Assembly (NCBI GenBank): GCA_965205655.1 | Contig: CBDBIJ010000114.1 | Span: 1-46,020, forward strand | From: Candidatus Latescibacterota bacterium | Lineage (GTDB): Bacteria; Latescibacterota; UBA2968; UBA8231 | DNA: 46,020 nt | Direction of reading: 5' to 3' | Shown here: one piece after another, positions 12,446 through 43,280 of the stretch | Numbering within the stretch: the stretch's first letter is position 1 | Layout: each line of letters begins with the position of its first letter | The notes under the pieces: generated by a model | Told to the model about the DNA's origin: nothing | What the model saw: the letters and a program-made list of their open reading frames with translations, nothing else | Databases searched by the model: none | Made by a program: the position numbers and the translations under genes

Positions 12446-13699
12446 TGGTTGATCCAGTTAGGATTGCGGGACATTGGAACTAGCGTTTTGAGGCCGGGGC
12501 TCGTATCCTTCTCCTGAGGCCCCTTTGTCAGGAGAGGAGGAGATCGACATTGCCTAAGAAGAAGTACATCGTCACGCTGACAGCAGAGGAGCGAGCTCAT
12601 CTGCGCGGTTTGATCTCGAGGGGGAAGGCGGCGGCCTACAAACAACGGCACGCGAGGATCCTGCTGAAGACGGACCAGGGTCCGCATGGTGAGCACTGGA
12701 CCGATGAGCAGATCGAGCACGCGCTCGACGTGCATCCGAGCACGGTGGAGCGTCTGCGCCAGCGGTTTGTGGAAGAGGGCTTCGAGGCGTCGCTGCTGCG
12801 CAACGAGCAGAAGAATCGGAAAGCGAACAAGATCGACGGCAGAGCCGAAGCCCATCTGGTGGCTCTGGCCTGCAGTGAGCCCCCCGATGGGAGGAAGCAC
12901 TGGACCCTGAAGCTGCTGGCAGACCGCCTCGTGGCCTTGGAGCTGGTTGACAGTGTCGGCCCGGAAACGGTCCGCAAGACGTTAAAAAAAACGAGCTGAA
13001 GCCTTGGCGGCGGGAGATGTGGTGCCTGCCGGGCAAACCCAGTGCCGAGTTCGTCTGCGCGATGGAGGACGTGTTGGATGTCTATCAACGGCCGTACGAC
13101 TCGAAGCACCCGTTGGTTTGTCTGGACGAAACGTGCAAGCAGTTGATCGGCGAAACGCAGCGGCCCCTGCCGGTGGCGCCTGGGTGTCCGGCACGGTATC
13201 ACCATGAATACGTCCGCAACGGGGTCGCCAACGTCTTCATGATGCTGGAGCCCTTCACGGGTCGCTCCCACATCCGAGTGAGCGAACGGCGCACGATGAG
13301 AGACTGGGCTCACACCGTCAGAGATCTCGTCGACGTCCACTACCCTGAGGCGGAGGAGATCACGCTGGTGATCGACAACTTGAGCACTCATAAGAAGGCG
13401 GCCCTCTACGAGGTCTTCGAACCGGAGGAAGCCAAGCGCATCGCTGACAAACTCGACATCCACTACACCCCGACACACGGCAGCTGGCTCAACATGGCCG
13501 AGATCGGACTGAACGTGCTCTTTCGGCAATGTCTCAATCGTCGCATCGCGACGATCCAGCAGTTGGGAAAACACGTGAAGGCCTGGCTCACGGAGCGCCT
13601 CGAAGACCCGCCCGTCATCAATTGGCGTTTCACGACGGCGGATGCACGAATCAAGCTCAAGCGTCTCTACCCCGCACTGCTACCTAGTTGAACCACTAG
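12442..13699 (+). mobile_element. IS630-family insertion sequence, complete (coordinates include the flanking CTAG copies)
   Basis: CTAG at 12442-12445 and 13696-13699. Imperfect terminal IRs 12445-12470 / 13671-13696 match at 20 of 26 positions. Two-ORF transposase inside. Confidence 0.93.
12550..13691 (+). CDS. IS630 transposase (orfA HTH 12550-12999 joined to orfB DDE domain by a -1 frameshift at A8 12984-12991)
   Basis: orfA ARILLK, LACSEPPDGRKHWTLKLLA. A -1 shift at TTAAAAAAAAC gives LKKNELKPWRREMWC. orfB has the DDE motifs CLDE, LVIDNL, SWLNMAEI. Confidence 0.9.
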
Positions 13700-19806: not shown

Positions 19807-20061
19807 ATGGATCTCGAGGGCTGGCGAGCCCGAATCGACACAGTGGATCGAAGCCTGGTCGATCTGCTCAACGAACGGATGGAATACTGCCTGGAGATCG
19901 GCAAGATCAAACGAGGTGAGGGCCGGCAAGTCCAAGACGAAGAGCGAGAGAGAGAAGTGGTTGAGAGGCTTTCGGCGTACAACGCGGGCCCCATAGGCGA
20001 TGACGCGATCGCGGATATCTTCACGCGCATCATGGCTGAGGCCCGGGCGTTGGAGAGTTGA
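19807..20061 (+). CDS. Monofunctional chorismate mutase (AroQ class, CM_2)
   Basis: LEGWRARIDTVDRSLVDLLNER, IGKIK, D.ERE..V. Confidence 0.88.
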   Translation: MDLEGWRARIDTVDRSLVDLLNERMEYCLEIGKIKRGEGRQVQDEEREREVVERLSAYNAGPIGDDAIADIFTRIMAEARALES

Positions 20062-21176
20062 GGGAGGACAAGGCATTCTTTGAGCGCGTCGCCATAGTCG
20101 GCGTCGGCCTGATCGGCGGGTCTCTGGGCCTGGCACTCAAACGCACCGGCTTCAAGGGCCAGGTCGTAGGAGTGAGCCGGACAGAAACGATAGAGACCGC
20201 CCTCGCCATGGGGGTGGTGGACGACGGATATCCGTACGAGAAGTTGGGTGAGGGCGTGGGGCATGCCGACCTCATCGTCATCTGTACGCCCATTCAACGA
20301 ATAATCGAGCTCTTGCCCGGCGTCGTGCGGGATGCCCCGGCGGGCGCGCTCGTGACTGACGTGGGCAGCACGAAACGGACGATCATCGGTGCGGCCGAGG
20401 GCTGCGCCCGAGAGGACGTGCACTTTCTGGGCGGTCATCCGATGGCGGGGTCGGAAAAGTCTGGCGTCACTGCTGCCGACCCCTTCCTGTTCCAGAACGC
20501 CTATTACATCGTCGTCTCGGACCGACCAGTGCCGGCGCCACTGTACGGCAGGTTCACCGATCTGCTCACCCAGATCGGCGCCAAGGTCGTGGAGCTGTCC
20601 GCGGAGGCCCACGACCAAGTGGTTGCCGCCATCTCTCACTTGCCGCAGATGATGGCCACGTCACTGGTGGAAATGGTCGGCAGGAGCGATGAAAGAGGCA
20701 GCGCCGGGCACTTTCTGGCCCTGGCAGCTGGTGGTTTCAGAGATATGACGCGAATCGCCTCGAGCCCGTTCGCGCCGGTGTGGGCGGACATCTGCGCCAC
20801 GAATGCCGACCAGATTCGCGGCATGATTGACAGCTACGTAAAGGTGCTTCTCGAGGTCAAAGGGCGGATCGGTGACGAAAGTCTCAACGACGACTTCGCC
20901 TACGCCAACGAGGTACGCGGTCGTATTCCGCGCGACATGAAAGGGTTCATCAACCCGCTGTTCGAGCTGCTGGTGGTGGCCGAGGACAAACCGGGGGTGG
21001 TCGCCGAGATCGCCGTTACGCTCTCGAAGGAAGGCATCAACATCAACGATATCGAGATCGTGAAAGTGCGCGAGGGGGAAGGCGGTACGATGCGCCTCGG
21101 TTTCGACAGCAGCGAGGCTGCTGATCGCTCCCTCGCCCTCCTGAAAGAGCTCGGATACCAGGCTCGGAAGCCGTGA
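20058..21176 (+). CDS. tyrA: Prephenate dehydrogenase with C-terminal ACT domain
   Basis: GVGLIGGS, TDVGSTK, GGHPMAGSE, HD..VAAISHLP, GGFRDMTRIA; ACT domain EDKPGVVA...ININDIEI. Confidence 0.93.
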   Translation: MREDKAFFERVAIVGVGLIGGSLGLALKRTGFKGQVVGVSRTETIETALAMGVVDDGYPYEKLGEGVGHADLIVICTPIQRIIELLPGVVRDAPAGALVTDVGSTKRTIIGAAEGCAREDVHFLGGHPMAGSEKSGVTAADPFLFQNAYYIVVSDRPVPAPLYGRFTDLLTQIGAKVVELSAEAHDQVVAAISHLPQMMATSLVEMVGRSDERGSAGHFLALAAGGFRDMTRIASSPFAPVWADICATNADQIRGMIDSYVKVLLEVKGRIGDESLNDDFAYANEVRGRIPRDMKGFINPLFELLVVAEDKPGVVAEIAVTLSKEGININDIEIVKVREGEGGTMRLGFDSSEAADRSLALLKELGYQARKP

Positions 21177-21186
21177 CATTGAGGGC

Positions 21187-22485
21187 GTGATGCAGGAGAC
21201 GGTAACCGCGGCCACAGCATTTTCCGGCGAGGTGTGTCTACCGGGCGAGTTGGAAGCGGCGACATCGACTCTGGCGCTGGCGAGTCTGGCTGAAGGCGAG
21301 AGTCGGATCCGCAACGTTCCGCCAACCATCGACCCGCTCGTCGACACGCTGCGCCGGCTCGGAGGTCGGCTCGAACGCACGGACTCGGAAGTGATCGTGG
21401 AGGGGAGGGGGTTGAAGGGTTTCGAGCAGTCGGACGAGGTGGTGGAGCTTGCGGGTGCGCACGGGGCTGCATCCGTCGTCATCGCCGGATTGGCGGGACG
21501 GGGAGGCAGGTGGCGGGTACGGGCAGGAAGCAACGGCGAAGGATGCGCCGCAACGTTGAGGCTCCTCTCGTTGATGGGGGTGGAGAGCACAAAGAGCGGG
21601 GACGGTGTCTTTACCATCGAAGGACCCGCTGAGATGATGGCCGCGACGATCGAAGAGGACGCGCGCGAGCGCGGGCTCGACGCCGCGACGGAGCTCGCCC
21701 TGCTCGTGGCGGGCCTCTACGGAGTGGGGCGGACGACGGTTCCCTCGCCGACCCGGAAACTCGACCGCGCAGATCACCAACTCGGCGCTTGGGGCGTGGA
21801 GTTGACCGGCAGCAAAGACGAGCGAGGGAGGCGGGTAGTGACCGTCGAGGCGGGACAGCAGATGCGAGGGCGGGAGGTGGAGTTGAGCGGTGATCTAAGC
21901 CTCGCCTCCCCGCTGTTGACGGCCGCGGTCTCCATCAAGAGATCGAAGGTGCGGATTCGAAACGTCGTCGTGCGCCCCGAGAGCAGAGCCTTTCTCGACC
22001 TGGTGCGCCAGGTCGGCGGTCAGGTCGAAATCGATGCAGACGAGGCGGGCGCCACCGACCTGGCGATAGAGGGGTCGGCACAACTGAAGGCGACCCGGGT
22101 CGCCGACAAACGGGCGGAGCGCCTGCTGGGCGATGTGGCGCTCCTCGCAGTGCTGGGGACGCAGGCGCAAGGAGAGTTTCTCATACGGGACATCGAGCAA
22201 CTTCGACAGGGCGAGTACGACTACGTGGCCCACCTGGCGGAGACGTTGCGCCTGCTCGAGGCCAAGGTGGGCGAATTTCCCGAAGGGATCATCATCGACG
22301 GCGGCACTCTGCTGCAGGGCGCCAGCGTCGACGCGAGAGGGGATGCAGCCTTGGCACAGGCTCTCGCCGTAGCAGGCCTGCTGGCCCACGGCGAGACCCA
22401 TATCGAAGGTGCGGAAGCGGCAGAGGAGACCTTTCCCGGGTTCTTCGACGTGCTGACGTCCTTGAAGGAAAGGAAGAAGAAATGA
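21187..22485 (+). CDS. EPSP synthase (AroA)-fold protein with degenerate active site
   Basis: Collinear with class II AroA scaffold motifs (IVEGRGLKG, LLVAGL, GDLS, TQAQG, TFPGFF) over the full length, but the catalytic motifs are substituted. Confidence 0.8.
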   Translation: MMQETVTAATAFSGEVCLPGELEAATSTLALASLAEGESRIRNVPPTIDPLVDTLRRLGGRLERTDSEVIVEGRGLKGFEQSDEVVELAGAHGAASVVIAGLAGRGGRWRVRAGSNGEGCAATLRLLSLMGVESTKSGDGVFTIEGPAEMMAATIEEDARERGLDAATELALLVAGLYGVGRTTVPSPTRKLDRADHQLGAWGVELTGSKDERGRRVVTVEAGQQMRGREVELSGDLSLASPLLTAAVSIKRSKVRIRNVVVRPESRAFLDLVRQVGGQVEIDADEAGATDLAIEGSAQLKATRVADKRAERLLGDVALLAVLGTQAQGEFLIRDIEQLRQGEYDYVAHLAETLRLLEAKVGEFPEGIIIDGGTLLQGASVDARGDAALAQALAVAGLLAHGETHIEGAEAAEETFPGFFDVLTSLKERKKK

Positions 22486-22622
22486 AAGGGTTCCTGCGAT
22501 TGTTCGCGATGGTGTCGGTCGTGTTCGGCGGCGGCGTCGTGCTCATCAAGCTCGTCTACGGGGTATCGTGGAGCGAGAGCCTGGAGATCGCCGACCAATT
22601 CGTCGAGGACCTGCTCGGTTGA
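22482..22622 (+). CDS. Small 46-aa hypothetical single-pass membrane protein
   Basis: MKGFLRLFAMVSVVFGGGVVLIKLVYGVSWSESLEIADQFVEDLLG*. ATGA overlap with the aroA-like stop, TTGA overlap with the aroE start, purine-rich SD upstream. Confidence 0.65.
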   Translation: MKGFLRLFAMVSVVFGGGVVLIKLVYGVSWSESLEIADQFVEDLLG

Positions 22623-23461
22623 TATCGGCCGCGACCGGCGTGCTCGGCGTCATCGGACACCCGGTGCGTCACAGCGCCTCGCCGGCGATGCACAACGCCG
22701 CCCTGGAGTCGACCGGTCTCGACTACGCCTACGTCGCCTTCGACGTTCCTCCCGGGCGGATCGATGAGGTGGCACCGGCCGTGCGTGCCCTCGGCATCGC
22801 CGGACTGAATGTGACCGTGCCCCACAAACGCGCAATCATGAGCGGACTTGACAACATCTCCGACGAGGCGGCGGCCATCGGCGCGGTCAACACGATCGCC
22901 AATGAGAGCGACGCGCTCACCGGCTACAACACCGATGCGCACGGCGTGATGGCCAGCCTGAAGCGAGATGGCGGCCTCAACACCCTGCCGGCGCACGCCG
23001 TCCTGCTCGGCGCCGGCGGAGCAGCGCGCGCCATCGCCTACGCTCTCGTGAACCGTCCCGAAGTAGAGCGGATCTCGCTGCTCAACCGCACCATCGGCAA
23101 CGCCGAAGAGCTGGCCTCGGCCATGGACCCGGGCGGGACCAAAGTTGTTGTGGGCGAGCTGGGTGAATCGCCGGATCGGATCGGCGAAGCCGGCCTCCTC
23201 ATCAACGCCACGTCCATGGGGATGGAACCCGATCACGAACGCTCTCCAGTCGGAGACGCGACGTGTCTGCACGACGCGCTCGTCGTCCTCGACATCGTCT
23301 ACAAACCTCTGAAAACGAAGCTCCTGCAGCAGGCGGAGTCGGCCGGGGCGCGTTGCCTGGACGGTCTCGGCATGCTCGTCCATCAGGGGGCCAAGTCCTT
23401 CGAGATCTGGACAGGCGAAGTGGCGCCTGTGGATGTGATGCGACGGGCCCTGGTAACGTGA
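22619..23461 (+). CDS. aroE: Shikimate dehydrogenase
   Basis: GHPVRHSASPAMHN, NVTVPHK, GAVNT, NTD, GAGGAA, NATSMGM, GLGMLVHQG; TTG start at 22619. Confidence 0.95.
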   Translation: MISAATGVLGVIGHPVRHSASPAMHNAALESTGLDYAYVAFDVPPGRIDEVAPAVRALGIAGLNVTVPHKRAIMSGLDNISDEAAAIGAVNTIANESDALTGYNTDAHGVMASLKRDGGLNTLPAHAVLLGAGGAARAIAYALVNRPEVERISLLNRTIGNAEELASAMDPGGTKVVVGELGESPDRIGEAGLLINATSMGMEPDHERSPVGDATCLHDALVVLDIVYKPLKTKLLQQAESAGARCLDGLGMLVHQGAKSFEIWTGEVAPVDVMRRALVT

Positions 23462-23468
23462 CTGTCGT

Positions 23469-25181
23469 ATGAACCCTTTTGTCGAAGAGATCGTGGAGAA
23501 GACGGCCGCCGCCGCCGAGCTCGAGGCAGAGGCAGTGCGGGAGCTTCTCGCTGTACCGCCGAACGAAGGCATGGGGGACTACGCCATTCCCTGCTTCACG
23601 CTGGCGAAGCAACTGCGCAAAAGTCCCGTCGACATCGCCAGCGATCTTGCGCGCAGCATCAAACCGCGCGCCGACGAGAGCGAGCGCATCGCCAAGGTCG
23701 AGGCGGCCGGCCCGTACGTGAACTTCACCCTGAACAGGACCAGCTTCATCGAGCACACCCTGAGGCAGATCGTCGCCGAGCAGGATCGCTACGGTTCGCG
23801 AGATCAGGGGCTCGGCAAGACCATGGCCATCGACTTCTCGTCGCCGAACCTGGCCAGGCCTTTCAGCATCGCTCATTTGCGCTCCACGGCCATCGGCAAC
23901 GCCATCTACAAGATCCACGAATTCCTCGGATGGAACTGCGTCGGCATCAACCATCTGGGGGACTACGGCGCCAACTTCGGGCAGCTATTGGCGGCCTACG
24001 GCATGTGGGCTGATCCAGAAAAAGTGAAGGCGAACCCGGTAGAAGAGCTGCTCGCCCTCTATGTCCGCTTCAACAAAAAGGTCGAGTCGGAGCCGAAGCT
24101 CAAAGACGAGGCGCGGCAATGTCTGCAACGTCTTGTCGCCGGCGAAGAAGAGATGGTAACCCTGTGGCAATTTTTCGTGGACGAAGGCCGCAAGGAGGCC
24201 GAGCGGATCTACAAGATTATCGGCGTGTCCTTCGACGTCACCCGCGGCGAGAGCTTCTACGCCGACAAACTCGACGATGTGATAGCGGCATTCGACGAGG
24301 CGGGACTGGCGAAGGAGAGCGATGGCGCGCTCATCATCGCGCTGGATGAGTTCGACATGGCGCCGTGCATTCTGCGCACGAGCAACGGCACGAGCACCTA
24401 CCACAGCCGCGACTTCGCAGCGCTCTTTCACCGCTATGAGCAGTACGAGTTCGACAAGATGGTCTACGTTACCGACATGAGGCAGGCGCTTCACTTCCGC
24501 CAGCTGTTCAAGTCTATAGAGCTGATGGGCGCAGACTGGATCAGTCGTTGCGAGCACGCCCCCTTCGGCATGATGAGCTTCAAGGGGGCGGCCATGGCCT
24601 CGAGAAAGGGGAACATCATCTTCCTCGAAGAGGTGCTCGACCAGGCGATCGAGTTGACGACGCAGATCATCGCGGAGAAAAACCCGCAGCTCGCCGACAA
24701 GATAGACGTGGCAGAGCAGGTGGGCATCAGCGCCGTCGTCTTCGCCGACATCAGCAACAGACGGACGAGAGATATCGTCTTCAATCTGGAGGAAGTGCTC
24801 AACTTCGACGGAGAAACGGGCCCCTATGTACAGTACACCCACGCCCGGTTCTGCAGCATTCTGCGCAAGTTCGGCAAGCCGGTCGCGACCGACGCGGATT
24901 TGAGCAGGCTCGGCGAGGAAGCGGAGATGCGGGTAGCGAGGGTACTCTCCGAGTTCCCCGCCGTCGTCGACCAGGCCTGCCGGGAGAACGAGCCGTCGCA
25001 CGTGGCCAGCTTTTTACTCGACTTGGCCGCCGCGTCGAATAAGCTGTACAACGAGCTGCCGGTGATTGTCAGCGATCAGGGAAAGTTGACCGAGGCGAGG
25101 ATCTGTCTGGTGGACGGCGTCAGACGGATCTTGGGGACGGGTCTGAGGTTGCTCGGGATGGCGGCGCCCGAGGAGATGTGA
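23469..25181 (+). CDS. argS: Arginyl-tRNA synthetase
   Basis: GPYVNF, DFSSPN, HLRSTAIG, NHLGDYG, MASRKG, GETGPYVQYTHAR, APEEM C-terminus. Confidence 0.96.
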   Translation: MNPFVEEIVEKTAAAAELEAEAVRELLAVPPNEGMGDYAIPCFTLAKQLRKSPVDIASDLARSIKPRADESERIAKVEAAGPYVNFTLNRTSFIEHTLRQIVAEQDRYGSRDQGLGKTMAIDFSSPNLARPFSIAHLRSTAIGNAIYKIHEFLGWNCVGINHLGDYGANFGQLLAAYGMWADPEKVKANPVEELLALYVRFNKKVESEPKLKDEARQCLQRLVAGEEEMVTLWQFFVDEGRKEAERIYKIIGVSFDVTRGESFYADKLDDVIAAFDEAGLAKESDGALIIALDEFDMAPCILRTSNGTSTYHSRDFAALFHRYEQYEFDKMVYVTDMRQALHFRQLFKSIELMGADWISRCEHAPFGMMSFKGAAMASRKGNIIFLEEVLDQAIELTTQIIAEKNPQLADKIDVAEQVGISAVVFADISNRRTRDIVFNLEEVLNFDGETGPYVQYTHARFCSILRKFGKPVATDADLSRLGEEAEMRVARVLSEFPAVVDQACRENEPSHVASFLLDLAAASNKLYNELPVIVSDQGKLTEARICLVDGVRRILGTGLRLLGMAAPEEM

Positions 25182-25381
25182 TGGACGCCATGGCGACGTC
25201 GGCGAAGCTCGTCTGCGACACCTGCGGCAAGGAAGCGGCGACCCTGCGGCGTGACGTCGTGGACGAAGGCTACAATGCGATGACAAAACCGGCCCTGTGG
25301 AATTGCGAGGAGTGTTATCGCGAGAAGCGGGCGAGGCGCCTGGCCGACGAATCCTCGTCCGGGGAAGATACGCAGCCGTGA
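25178..25381 (+). CDS. Small hypothetical protein with two CxxC motifs (putative Zn-binding)
   Basis: CDTC...CEEC. It fills the gap between argS and aroK and overlaps both. Confidence 0.65.
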   Translation: MMDAMATSAKLVCDTCGKEAATLRRDVVDEGYNAMTKPALWNCEECYREKRARRLADESSSGEDTQP

Positions 25382-41940: not shown

Positions 41941-43280
41941 ATGCAGGTCGATCCGACCATCTTCAAGGCCTATGACATCCGCGGTATCTACCCCGACCAG
42001 CTGAATGAGGACGTGGCCCGTGCCATCGGACGGGCCTTCGTCACCCATCTCCAACCCGCCGAAGTCGTCGTCGGTCGCGACATGCGACTATCGAGTCCGA
42101 CTTTGTTCGAGGCGGTAGTGAGCGGGCTGACTCAGCAGGGCGCCGACGTCGTCGACATCGGCATGGTGGGCACCGATCAGTACTACTTCGCCGCGGCGAC
42201 TCTCGAGAGACCGGGAGTGATGGTGACGGCGTCCACAATCCACCGCAGTACAACGGCTTCAAGATGGTGCGCCGCATGCCACACATGCTCAGCGGCAGTG
42301 AGGGCATACAGGACCTGCGCCTTCTCATAGAGTCGGAGGGTTATTCGGCGGTGGAAGCGGAGGGGGCGGTGCGGCAGAGGGACGTGAGCGACGGCTTCGT
42401 GAGAAAGGTTCTCTCCTTCGTAGACCCTTCCGGAATAGCGCCTCTCAAGGTCGTCGCCGATACCTGCAACGGCATGGCCGGTCCCGTCCTCGAGAGGGTG
42501 CTCGGCGAGCTACCGATAGACCTCACGGGTATGTTTCTCGAACCCGACGGAAACCTGCCAAACCACGGTCTCGACCCGATGCAGGAGGAGAACCGCGCCG
42601 CACTGCAGGCGTCCGTACGACAGCTGGGAGCGGACGTCGGGTTCGCCTTCGATGGGGACGGCGACCGCTTTTTCGTCATCGACGACCGCGGGCAGTTTGT
42701 ACCCGGAGATTTTCTCACAGCTTTGCTGGGCTCCTTTTTGCTCGAGTGCGAGCCCGGCGCCACGATCATCTACGACGTGCGCTGCTCCCGGGCGGTGCCG
42801 GACGTGATCGGAGCCGCCGAAGGCAGGCCCCTCATCGAGCGGGTCGGGCACGCCTTCATGAAGCCAAGAATGGCAAGCGAGGGTGCGTTGTTCGCGGGTG
42901 AGTTGAGCGGGCACTACTATTTTCGCGATTTTTTCGGAGCCGACTCGGGAATAGTTCCGGCGCTCGTCGTGCTCGACATGCTGTCCCGCAAGCGCCGGAA
43001 GCTGTCTGAACTCCTCAAGCCGCTCGAGGAGCGGTACTTCATTTCCGGGGAAATCAACTCCGAGGTGGCCGATCCGGAGGCGAAGATTGAGGAACTCGCC
43101 GAGCAATACCGTCACGGCCGCATCGAGCGCATCGACGGCATTTCCGTGAGTTTCGACGACTGGCACTTCAACGTGCGGCCCTCGAACACGGAGCCCCTCC
43201 TGCGGTTGAATCTGGAAGGAACGAGCAGGCAGCTGATGGAGGAGAAGGTCGACGAGGTGTTGAGTCTCATTCGCTGTTGA
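41941..43280 (+). pseudogene. Phosphomannomutase/phosphoglucomutase with a single-base frameshift at 42233-42234 (real lesion or sequencing error)
   Basis: FKAYDIRG, GRDMR, then VTAS followed by a frame switch to HNPPQYNGFK; FDGDGDR, GELSGH, NVRPSNTEP. Confidence 0.88.

Follow-up and report, generated by a model that had tools for sequence, protein, structure and literature searches.

EPSP synthase (AroA), the target of glyphosate, is regarded as a textbook single-function enzyme. Rcl1, an RtcA-like protein of the pre-ribosome, is not known to have cyclase activity and serves as a binding partner. For mycobacteria, PMC8694188 links the essentiality of aroA to its activity. In P. syringae, about 200 residues have been deleted from the AroA part of a TyrA fusion, for which Song et al. 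(2005, PMC1173090) suggest a possible regulatory domain; the paper places the deletion at the N-terminal side in two places and at the C-terminal side in one. The present analysis concerns an AroA homologue encoded on a contig of a Candidatus Latescibacterota bacterium, whose whole analysed stretch of 46,020 nucleotides is referred to here as the window. A first-pass annotation of the window had proposed that this homologue is a pseudoenzyme, maintained in an open frame while the real enzyme is encoded elsewhere. Its family was not described in the publications searched, a set lying mostly outside subscription journals. Homologues predicted to be inactive are called dead copies below.

The locus in the window

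The gene order around the homologue is trpE-trpG-trpD-trpC-trpS-chorismate mutase-tyrA-dead aroA-46-aa ORF-aroE-argS-67-aa ORF-aroK-aroB, where the trp and argS names rest partly on translations (Table 1). As first described, the 432-codon frame is uninterrupted throughout and follows tyrA, from which it is separated by about 10 bases. It begins with a GTG codon at 21187, directly followed by the ATG from which the 431-aa protein of the database record would start. Contigs of two public runs (X1, possibly the source sample, and X3) cover the ORF completely, no indel is listed within it, and the eight strain differences within the frame divide evenly into four synonymous and four non-synonymous changes.

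Table 1. Features of the dead aroA locus, in positions of the window.
Feature	Position	Strand	Remarks
tyrA, prephenate dehydrogenase with ACT domain	20058..21176	+	PDH plus ACT; upstream neighbour
Dead AroA (EPSP synthase) homologue, predicted inactive	21187..22485	+	432 aa, 431 from ATG 21190; PF00275 145 bits
N-terminal lobe, about residues 21-232	21247..21882	+	Less constrained; lost by clean deletion in two lineages among the relatives
C-terminal lobe (with residues 1-20)	21883..22485	+	Always kept; natural 219-aa form L146 is predicted to fold
Clade-specific conserved patch, residues 300-372	22084..22302	+	Basic strand 300-305, Glu330, Arg334, Gly362 motif
46-aa hydrophobic peptide	22482..22622	+	Start overlaps dead-aroA stop; no Pfam family
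aroE, shikimate dehydrogenase	22568..23461	+	Profile matches
argS, arginyl-tRNA synthetase	23469..25181	+	ArgS 42-44% identical to ArgS of G305, G301, G156

Several neighbouring features were recorded in their own right. The 46-aa peptide carries a conserved SWxES.xIADxF motif, shows 40-88% identity across Latescibacterota where it can be aligned and always lies between the aroA-clade gene and aroE; among the loci examined it occurs in Latescibacterota only, and its ESM Atlas match is a cluster without a name, at 0.90 and with low recognition. The 67-aa ORF between argS and aroK (25178-25381) has two CxxC pairs and no Pfam match, and recurs at this position in several relatives with 63-68% identity. 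At the argS position, two genera (L087:10216-11928 and L106:4332-6062) encode ArgS proteins that are only about 32% identical to that of the window, which suggests in-place replacement. Elsewhere in the window, a transposase-like pair (HTH_32 and DDE_3, 12550-13691) separates the FtsX gene of an ABC transporter from its ATPase gene, and phosphoglucomutase/phosphomannomutase domains at 41941-43280 are split over ORFs of 129 and 338 aa in different frames, through a frameshift or an assembly error. Blind clustering of the neighbouring ORFs was dominated by shadow frames.

Loss of the active site within a conserved fold

Twenty active-site columns, labelled here by E. coli residue, were defined on the intact class II enzyme P0060. 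The window protein keeps two of them, E343 (the Glu341 equivalent) and D386 (the Asp before the His-Arg pair), whereas intact class II enzymes keep 18-20 and other intact types of aroA 15-17. The near-total erasure of catalytic motifs reported earlier is thus borne out by the tabulated alignment, and alignments to the AroA proteins of B. halodurans (3RMT) and Coxiella (3TR1, 3ROI) place all seven of the motif replacements read by the first-pass annotation where it had put them. Lys22, Ser23, Arg27, Arg100, Arg124 and Gln171, the substrate-binding residues, are replaced by L22, E23, S27, S96, E118 and A167, and Lys340, Arg344, His385 and Arg386 by G342, Y346, A387 and A388; the RxHTE motif is gone, with LDRAD in place of RDHTE. 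Two residues that had not been listed before add to this picture: the catalytic Asp313 equivalent is Gly315, and the Glu341 equivalent, kept in the window copy, is present in just 19 of 82 dead copies.

The protein scores below the EPSP synthase equivalog threshold (TIGR01356, 155.9 against a cut-off of 287.25) and below that of MurA (TIGR01072, 64.9 against 392.7). Its structure model (pLDDT 95.3, pTM 0.92) has the two-lobed enolpyruvyl-transferase fold, with Coxiella AroA 4EGR as the best Foldseek match (E 3.9e-35), and its best PDB sequence match has an E-value of 5.8e-41. The enzyme fold is therefore present without the catalytic motifs, as expected of a pseudoenzyme. Judged from its residues, the protein would lack EPSP synthase activity, and it is very probably not an EPSP synthase.

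An intact-type aroA in the same genome and the spread of dead copies

The genome of the window, which is 84% complete, contains two PF00275 loci besides the dead aroA. One, on contig C85, encodes MurA; the other, at the edge of contig C8, is the last (3') third of an intact-type aroA, with intact KECDR and DHR motifs and 66-72% identity to the intact aroA of family relatives, the 5' part of which was not found in the 84%-complete assembly. Together with the detection of an aroA above the TIGR01356 cut-off in 55 of the 61 genomes searched (the window's own and 60 relatives), this fragment supports the earlier proposal that the real EPSP synthase is encoded elsewhere. The genome also encodes AroC and a DAHP synthase; the aroC profile match (G000:C17:46779-47996) is split over two frames, possibly by a frameshift, an insertion or an assembly error.

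The named homologues of the window protein belong to Latescibacterota. With a 70-sequence profile, and with assignment by score, approximately 113 of 116 class relatives gave a match in the score range of the family, and no such match was obtained for the other three (G022, G038, G077). All 59 class loci examined residue by residue retain only 1-8 of the 20 sites, without any consistent replacement residue, and the three loci examined in family f10 are also dead (1-4 of 20). Five other Latescibacterota families have an intact orthologue (18-20 of 20 in 7/7 full-length loci), and three families gave no strong match. A motif scan of Fibrobacterota gave 27 loci, in which 0-4 of 20 sites remain; a search of the phylum matched 118 of 121 genomes, some of them only through their intact aroA, and all 19 lower-scoring loci fetched were likewise dead (0-4 of 20). 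An intact-type aroA was present elsewhere in each of the 13 Fibrobacterota genomes checked.

The AroA clade of the window descends from an intact AroA that is still present in other Latescibacterota classes and in Zixibacteria. Monophyly of all dead copies received a support of 0.99 in FastTree, while IQ-TREE, run with a larger number of long branches, gave 16. The trees thus support a single origin only unstably, and the active site may have been lost once or several times.

Selection and the loss of one lobe

Pairwise Nei-Gojobori estimates of dN/dS lay between 0.07 and 0.30 in all 22 pairs of dead copies; these are pairs of relatives and include none with the window's own gene, for which no close partner sequence was found. 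The frame thus appears to be maintained by selection among the relatives' dead copies rather than left to random decay, as had been argued from the open frame, and purifying selection on a protein that has lost its catalytic residues again conforms to a pseudoenzyme. Together with the intact-type aroA, these values, far below 1, support the first-pass reading of a maintained pseudoenzyme with the real enzyme elsewhere. Constraint is distributed unevenly along the protein. The N-lobe had the higher dN/dS in 16 of 16 computable pairs, with a maximum of 0.43, where 3 of the 19 full-length pairs were saturated, pairs share genomes and two active pairs show a slight bias in the same direction; the dN/dS of the C-lobe is near the values for tyrA and aroE. 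Likewise, fewer columns reach a conservation of at least 70% in the N-terminal lobe (9/197) than in the other lobe (32/215).

In some relatives the N-terminal lobe is missing altogether. One-lobe forms of about 215-240 aa, in which the first strands are joined to the C-terminal part, occur in all 21 genomes of genus g19 and in two f3 genomes, and since these two sets stand apart in both trees, the lobe must have been lost at least twice. A 219-aa representative (L146) was modelled as one lobe (pLDDT 95.3), and the model aligns with EPSPS 5BUF over 214 residues (Z 27.2, rmsd 2.5) and also matches MurA (Z 23.8), NikO (Z 20.9) and RtcA (Z 12.3); in the ESM Atlas, the one-lobe form returns EPSPS clusters only. 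Because an enzyme whose site lies in the cleft would be unworkable with one lobe, the retained function probably resides in the C lobe. The G056 orthologue (L081:6877-7398), at 174 codons, is shorter than the one-lobe forms and possibly eroding. Fused forms of 843-2405 aa were sought and none was found, which is weak evidence, as TyrA fusions of about 730-750 aa fall outside that range.

A conserved patch on the C-terminal lobe

A clade-specific patch on the C-lobe comprises the basic strand 300-305, Glu330, Arg334 and the motif (K/R)VGE.P(D/E)G.V..G, which includes Gly362 (codon 22270-22272). Of 83 distinct dead sequences collected independently of this motif, 82 contain Gly362 and 76 contain Arg334; at least two Lys/Arg at positions 301-304 are seen in 76, versus 3 of 25 other intact enzymes. 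No residue is common to the dead copies in the former active-site columns. Gly362 is also found in 39 of 48 active or partly decayed enzymes of Latescibacterota and Zixibacteria, versus 9 of 55 others (three of the nine having been found through the motif). In the structure model, the patch residues lie on four strands of one repeat.

The sheets of this fold face outward. By analogy with the fold, the patch would be surface-exposed and may represent a putative binding surface that predates the loss of catalysis; alternatively, Gly362 might be shared across the clade for structural reasons. Near the hinge, Fibrobacterota, Zixibacteria and f10 retain a basic helical insert that the class of the window lacks, so that a second job might not be the same in all phyla.

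Retention where pathway genes were not found

In Zixibacteria, aroA was above the cut-off in 55 of 61 genomes and intact in all 30 top-scoring loci, and argS lies a few genes upstream in 7/7 intact loci fetched more widely. A search for aroC found none in 8 of the 61 genomes, six of which keep an aroA-clade frame directly after argS. Three of these frames (G156, G301, G305) keep 14, 15 and 17 of the 20 sites, and three (G318, G325, G327) keep one. In all six carriers tyrA and aroK were not found either, and aroB and aroE were not found in the four tested, with G274 as a positive control. The aroA-clade gene was not found in the other two aroC-less genomes (G310, G323), nor after argS in G311; in G276 and G290, argS is followed by a dead copy, and an above-cut-off aroA lies elsewhere. 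Most of the genomes analysed are metagenome assemblies of uneven completeness, and missing genes are therefore reported as not found rather than absent, but chance gaps would need at least three genes to be missed in each of six genomes, and G318 has a 3.5-Mb contig. Because G156, G301 and G305 keep Asp313, Glu341 and Arg344, recent loss of the pathway or a changed substrate could explain those three.

The association with tyrA was assessed in the other two phyla. Often with overlap, tyrA is upstream in 62 of 62 dead loci of Latescibacterota and in 22 of 27 loci of Fibrobacterota, as well as in 14 of 19 further Fibrobacterota loci, yet it was undetected in four Fibrobacterota carriers (G159, G162, G171, G168) for which G152 served as positive control. 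These four genomes (loci L218-L220 and L229) have aroC and an intact-type aroA, and with prephenate dehydrogenase undetected they may be tyrosine auxotrophs or use another route. In five Chitinispirillia loci (L168, L169, L178, L181, L191), TyrA has lost its ACT domain and its DPFLFQNA motif is altered, and dead aroA is kept.

TyrA, AroK, AroE and the 46-aa peptide had each been proposed as partners in the first reading of the window. As a general reason for retention they fail, since TyrA and AroK were not found in six of six pathway-less Zixibacteria carriers, AroE was not found in the four of four tested and the peptide was found in Latescibacterota loci only.

Interpretation

Since dead copies appear to be kept by selection in three phyla, also where the pathway was not found, a second, non-enzymatic job for the dead AroA is the most likely explanation. 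We favour, with a probability of about 0.66, an ancestral AroA with two jobs, whose binding role outlived catalysis and is independent of aromatic synthesis. The ancestor would be the class II AroA resident in Latescibacterota, Fibrobacterota and Zixibacteria, which would have made EPSP in its interlobe cleft and would have bound a macromolecular partner on one C-lobe sheet (basic strand 300-305, Glu330/Arg334, Gly362, Val369). Once the reaction was catalysed by another aroA product, or the pathway had disappeared, the cleft would decay and the binding lobe would stay. Points against this account are that the gene is dispensable in some relatives, that Gly362 may be structural, that the basic insert is missing from the window's class, that the three partly decayed Zixibacteria copies may reflect recent pathway loss and that genes not found may be gaps in metagenome assemblies.

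As the partner must exist in cells lacking the shikimate pathway, it would most probably be an RNA or a protein of housekeeping function. The leading candidate, if a weak one, is the translation machinery (ArgRS or tRNA): it is the sole candidate with positional support in two phyla, argS being also the direct upstream neighbour of the aroA-clade gene in eight Zixibacteria loci with decayed copies (the L269 homologue matches PF00750), and it suits a basic sheet. Against it, argS is not a neighbour in the Fibrobacterota loci, where nadK-recN follows, and the type of ArgS does not track the gene, some carriers having an ArgS only 27-33% identical and similar ArgS proteins occurring also without the gene; the adjacency may be a remnant of an old operon. 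Ten ArgS columns that track the gene pass a loose filter, one of them Gly for Arg at 159, in a comparison with seven non-carrier loci, a set too small and too closely related to rely on. Co-folding of the window ArgS with the dead AroA scored 0.00 in two runs, which is evidence neither way, and no RNA holder was listed. The more specific conjecture that AroA of the three phyla moonlights as an RNA- or tRNA-handling translation cofactor, for instance an ArgRS helper, via its basic C-lobe sheet, much as Rcl1 employs this fold in assembling ribosomes, is unlikely. If true, an RNA/tRNA role would have survived the loss of catalysis, of an entire lobe and of the shikimate pathway.

That the protein regulates or scaffolds aromatic synthesis in the window organism, most likely bound to TyrA, while the other phyla keep the gene for different reasons, appears unlikely. 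The constant upstream position of tyrA in Latescibacterota, its frequency in Fibrobacterota and the TyrA-AroA fusions, including that of P. syringae with its shortened AroA part (PMC1173090), speak for it; tyrA was not found, however, in the four Fibrobacterota and six Zixibacteria carriers named above, and the five Chitinispirillia TyrAs without an ACT domain still have dead aroA. Moreover, tyrA-aroA adjacency is ancient and widespread according to PMC1173090, and so needs no binding.

A new enzyme or small-molecule sensor with a rebuilt site seems quite improbable. The fold is intact and some acidic residues remain close to the former site (a few Asp/Glu, with D386 in 49/83), but the former active-site columns are variable with no conserved replacement, and the one-lobe forms are unable to close a cleft. 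Even less probable is binding to MurA, the other enolpyruvyl transferase, or to itself, in a role touching cell-wall precursor supply: MurA is present in the genome, the PDB holds an integrative MurA2-MurA1 model (9A7B) and dapF is upstream in pathway-less Zixibacteria loci, yet dapF is not a neighbour in the Latescibacterota or Fibrobacterota loci. A relic in slow decay, preserved solely because it spaces the operon or couples translation, would be in keeping with the N-lobe dN/dS of up to 0.43, the gene overlaps on both sides and the 174-codon frame of G056; it is rendered highly improbable by the constraint on the C-lobe, near that of tyrA and aroE, by open frames in three phyla, by the precise deletion of one lobe twice and by the conserved patch. 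Finally, a divergent class of EPSP synthase, for which the retained Glu341 equivalent and two-lobe fold might be cited, can practically be dismissed, as the equivalents of Lys22, Arg27, Arg100, Arg124, Gln171, Asp313, Lys340, Arg344, His385 and Arg386 are all replaced and an intact-type aroA occurs in the same genome.

Retention of the EPSPS shell across a multi-phylum clade, despite loss of the active site, of one lobe and apparently of the pathway, implies a hidden second function, for which Gly362, Arg334 and strand 300-305 are the residues to mutate; because active enzymes of the clade have the same patch, a working EPSPS is open to study of this role. Database entries for some dead or decayed copies (P0020, P0097, P0169) carry the label '3-phosphoshikimate 1-carboxyvinyltransferase', and can thus mislead predictions of the pathway and of glyphosate sensitivity.

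Comparison with known systems

Class II EPSP synthase (AroA, EC 2.5.1.19; PF00275, TIGR01356; 3RMT, 3TR1/4EGR) resembles the window protein in fold, length and operon position after tyrA. It differs in that the window protein has 18 of 20 active-site positions replaced and scores below the family cut-off, and in that the window family can lose one lobe and is kept where the pathway was not found. The MurA and NikO enolpyruvyl transferases share their fold with the one-lobe form (Z 23.8 and 20.9), but the window protein is set apart from MurA by its TIGR01072 score (64.9 vs 392.7) and by the separate MurA on C85. The one-lobe form also matches Rcl1 (4CLQ, 5OQL, 7MQ8; Z 10.9-12.2, rmsd 3.3-3.6, 189-193 residues aligned), which is RtcA-derived rather than AroA-derived, eukaryotic and only 8-12% identical, so that the likeness is an analogy in which the shared fold alone is seen. 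The truncated AroA ('AroF') domain of P. syringae (PMC1173090) is, like the window protein, a catalytically disrupted EPSPS beside TyrA after a second aroA arrived; unlike that fused remnant of one species, the window family consists of a stand-alone gene in three phyla, which is kept also without tyrA.
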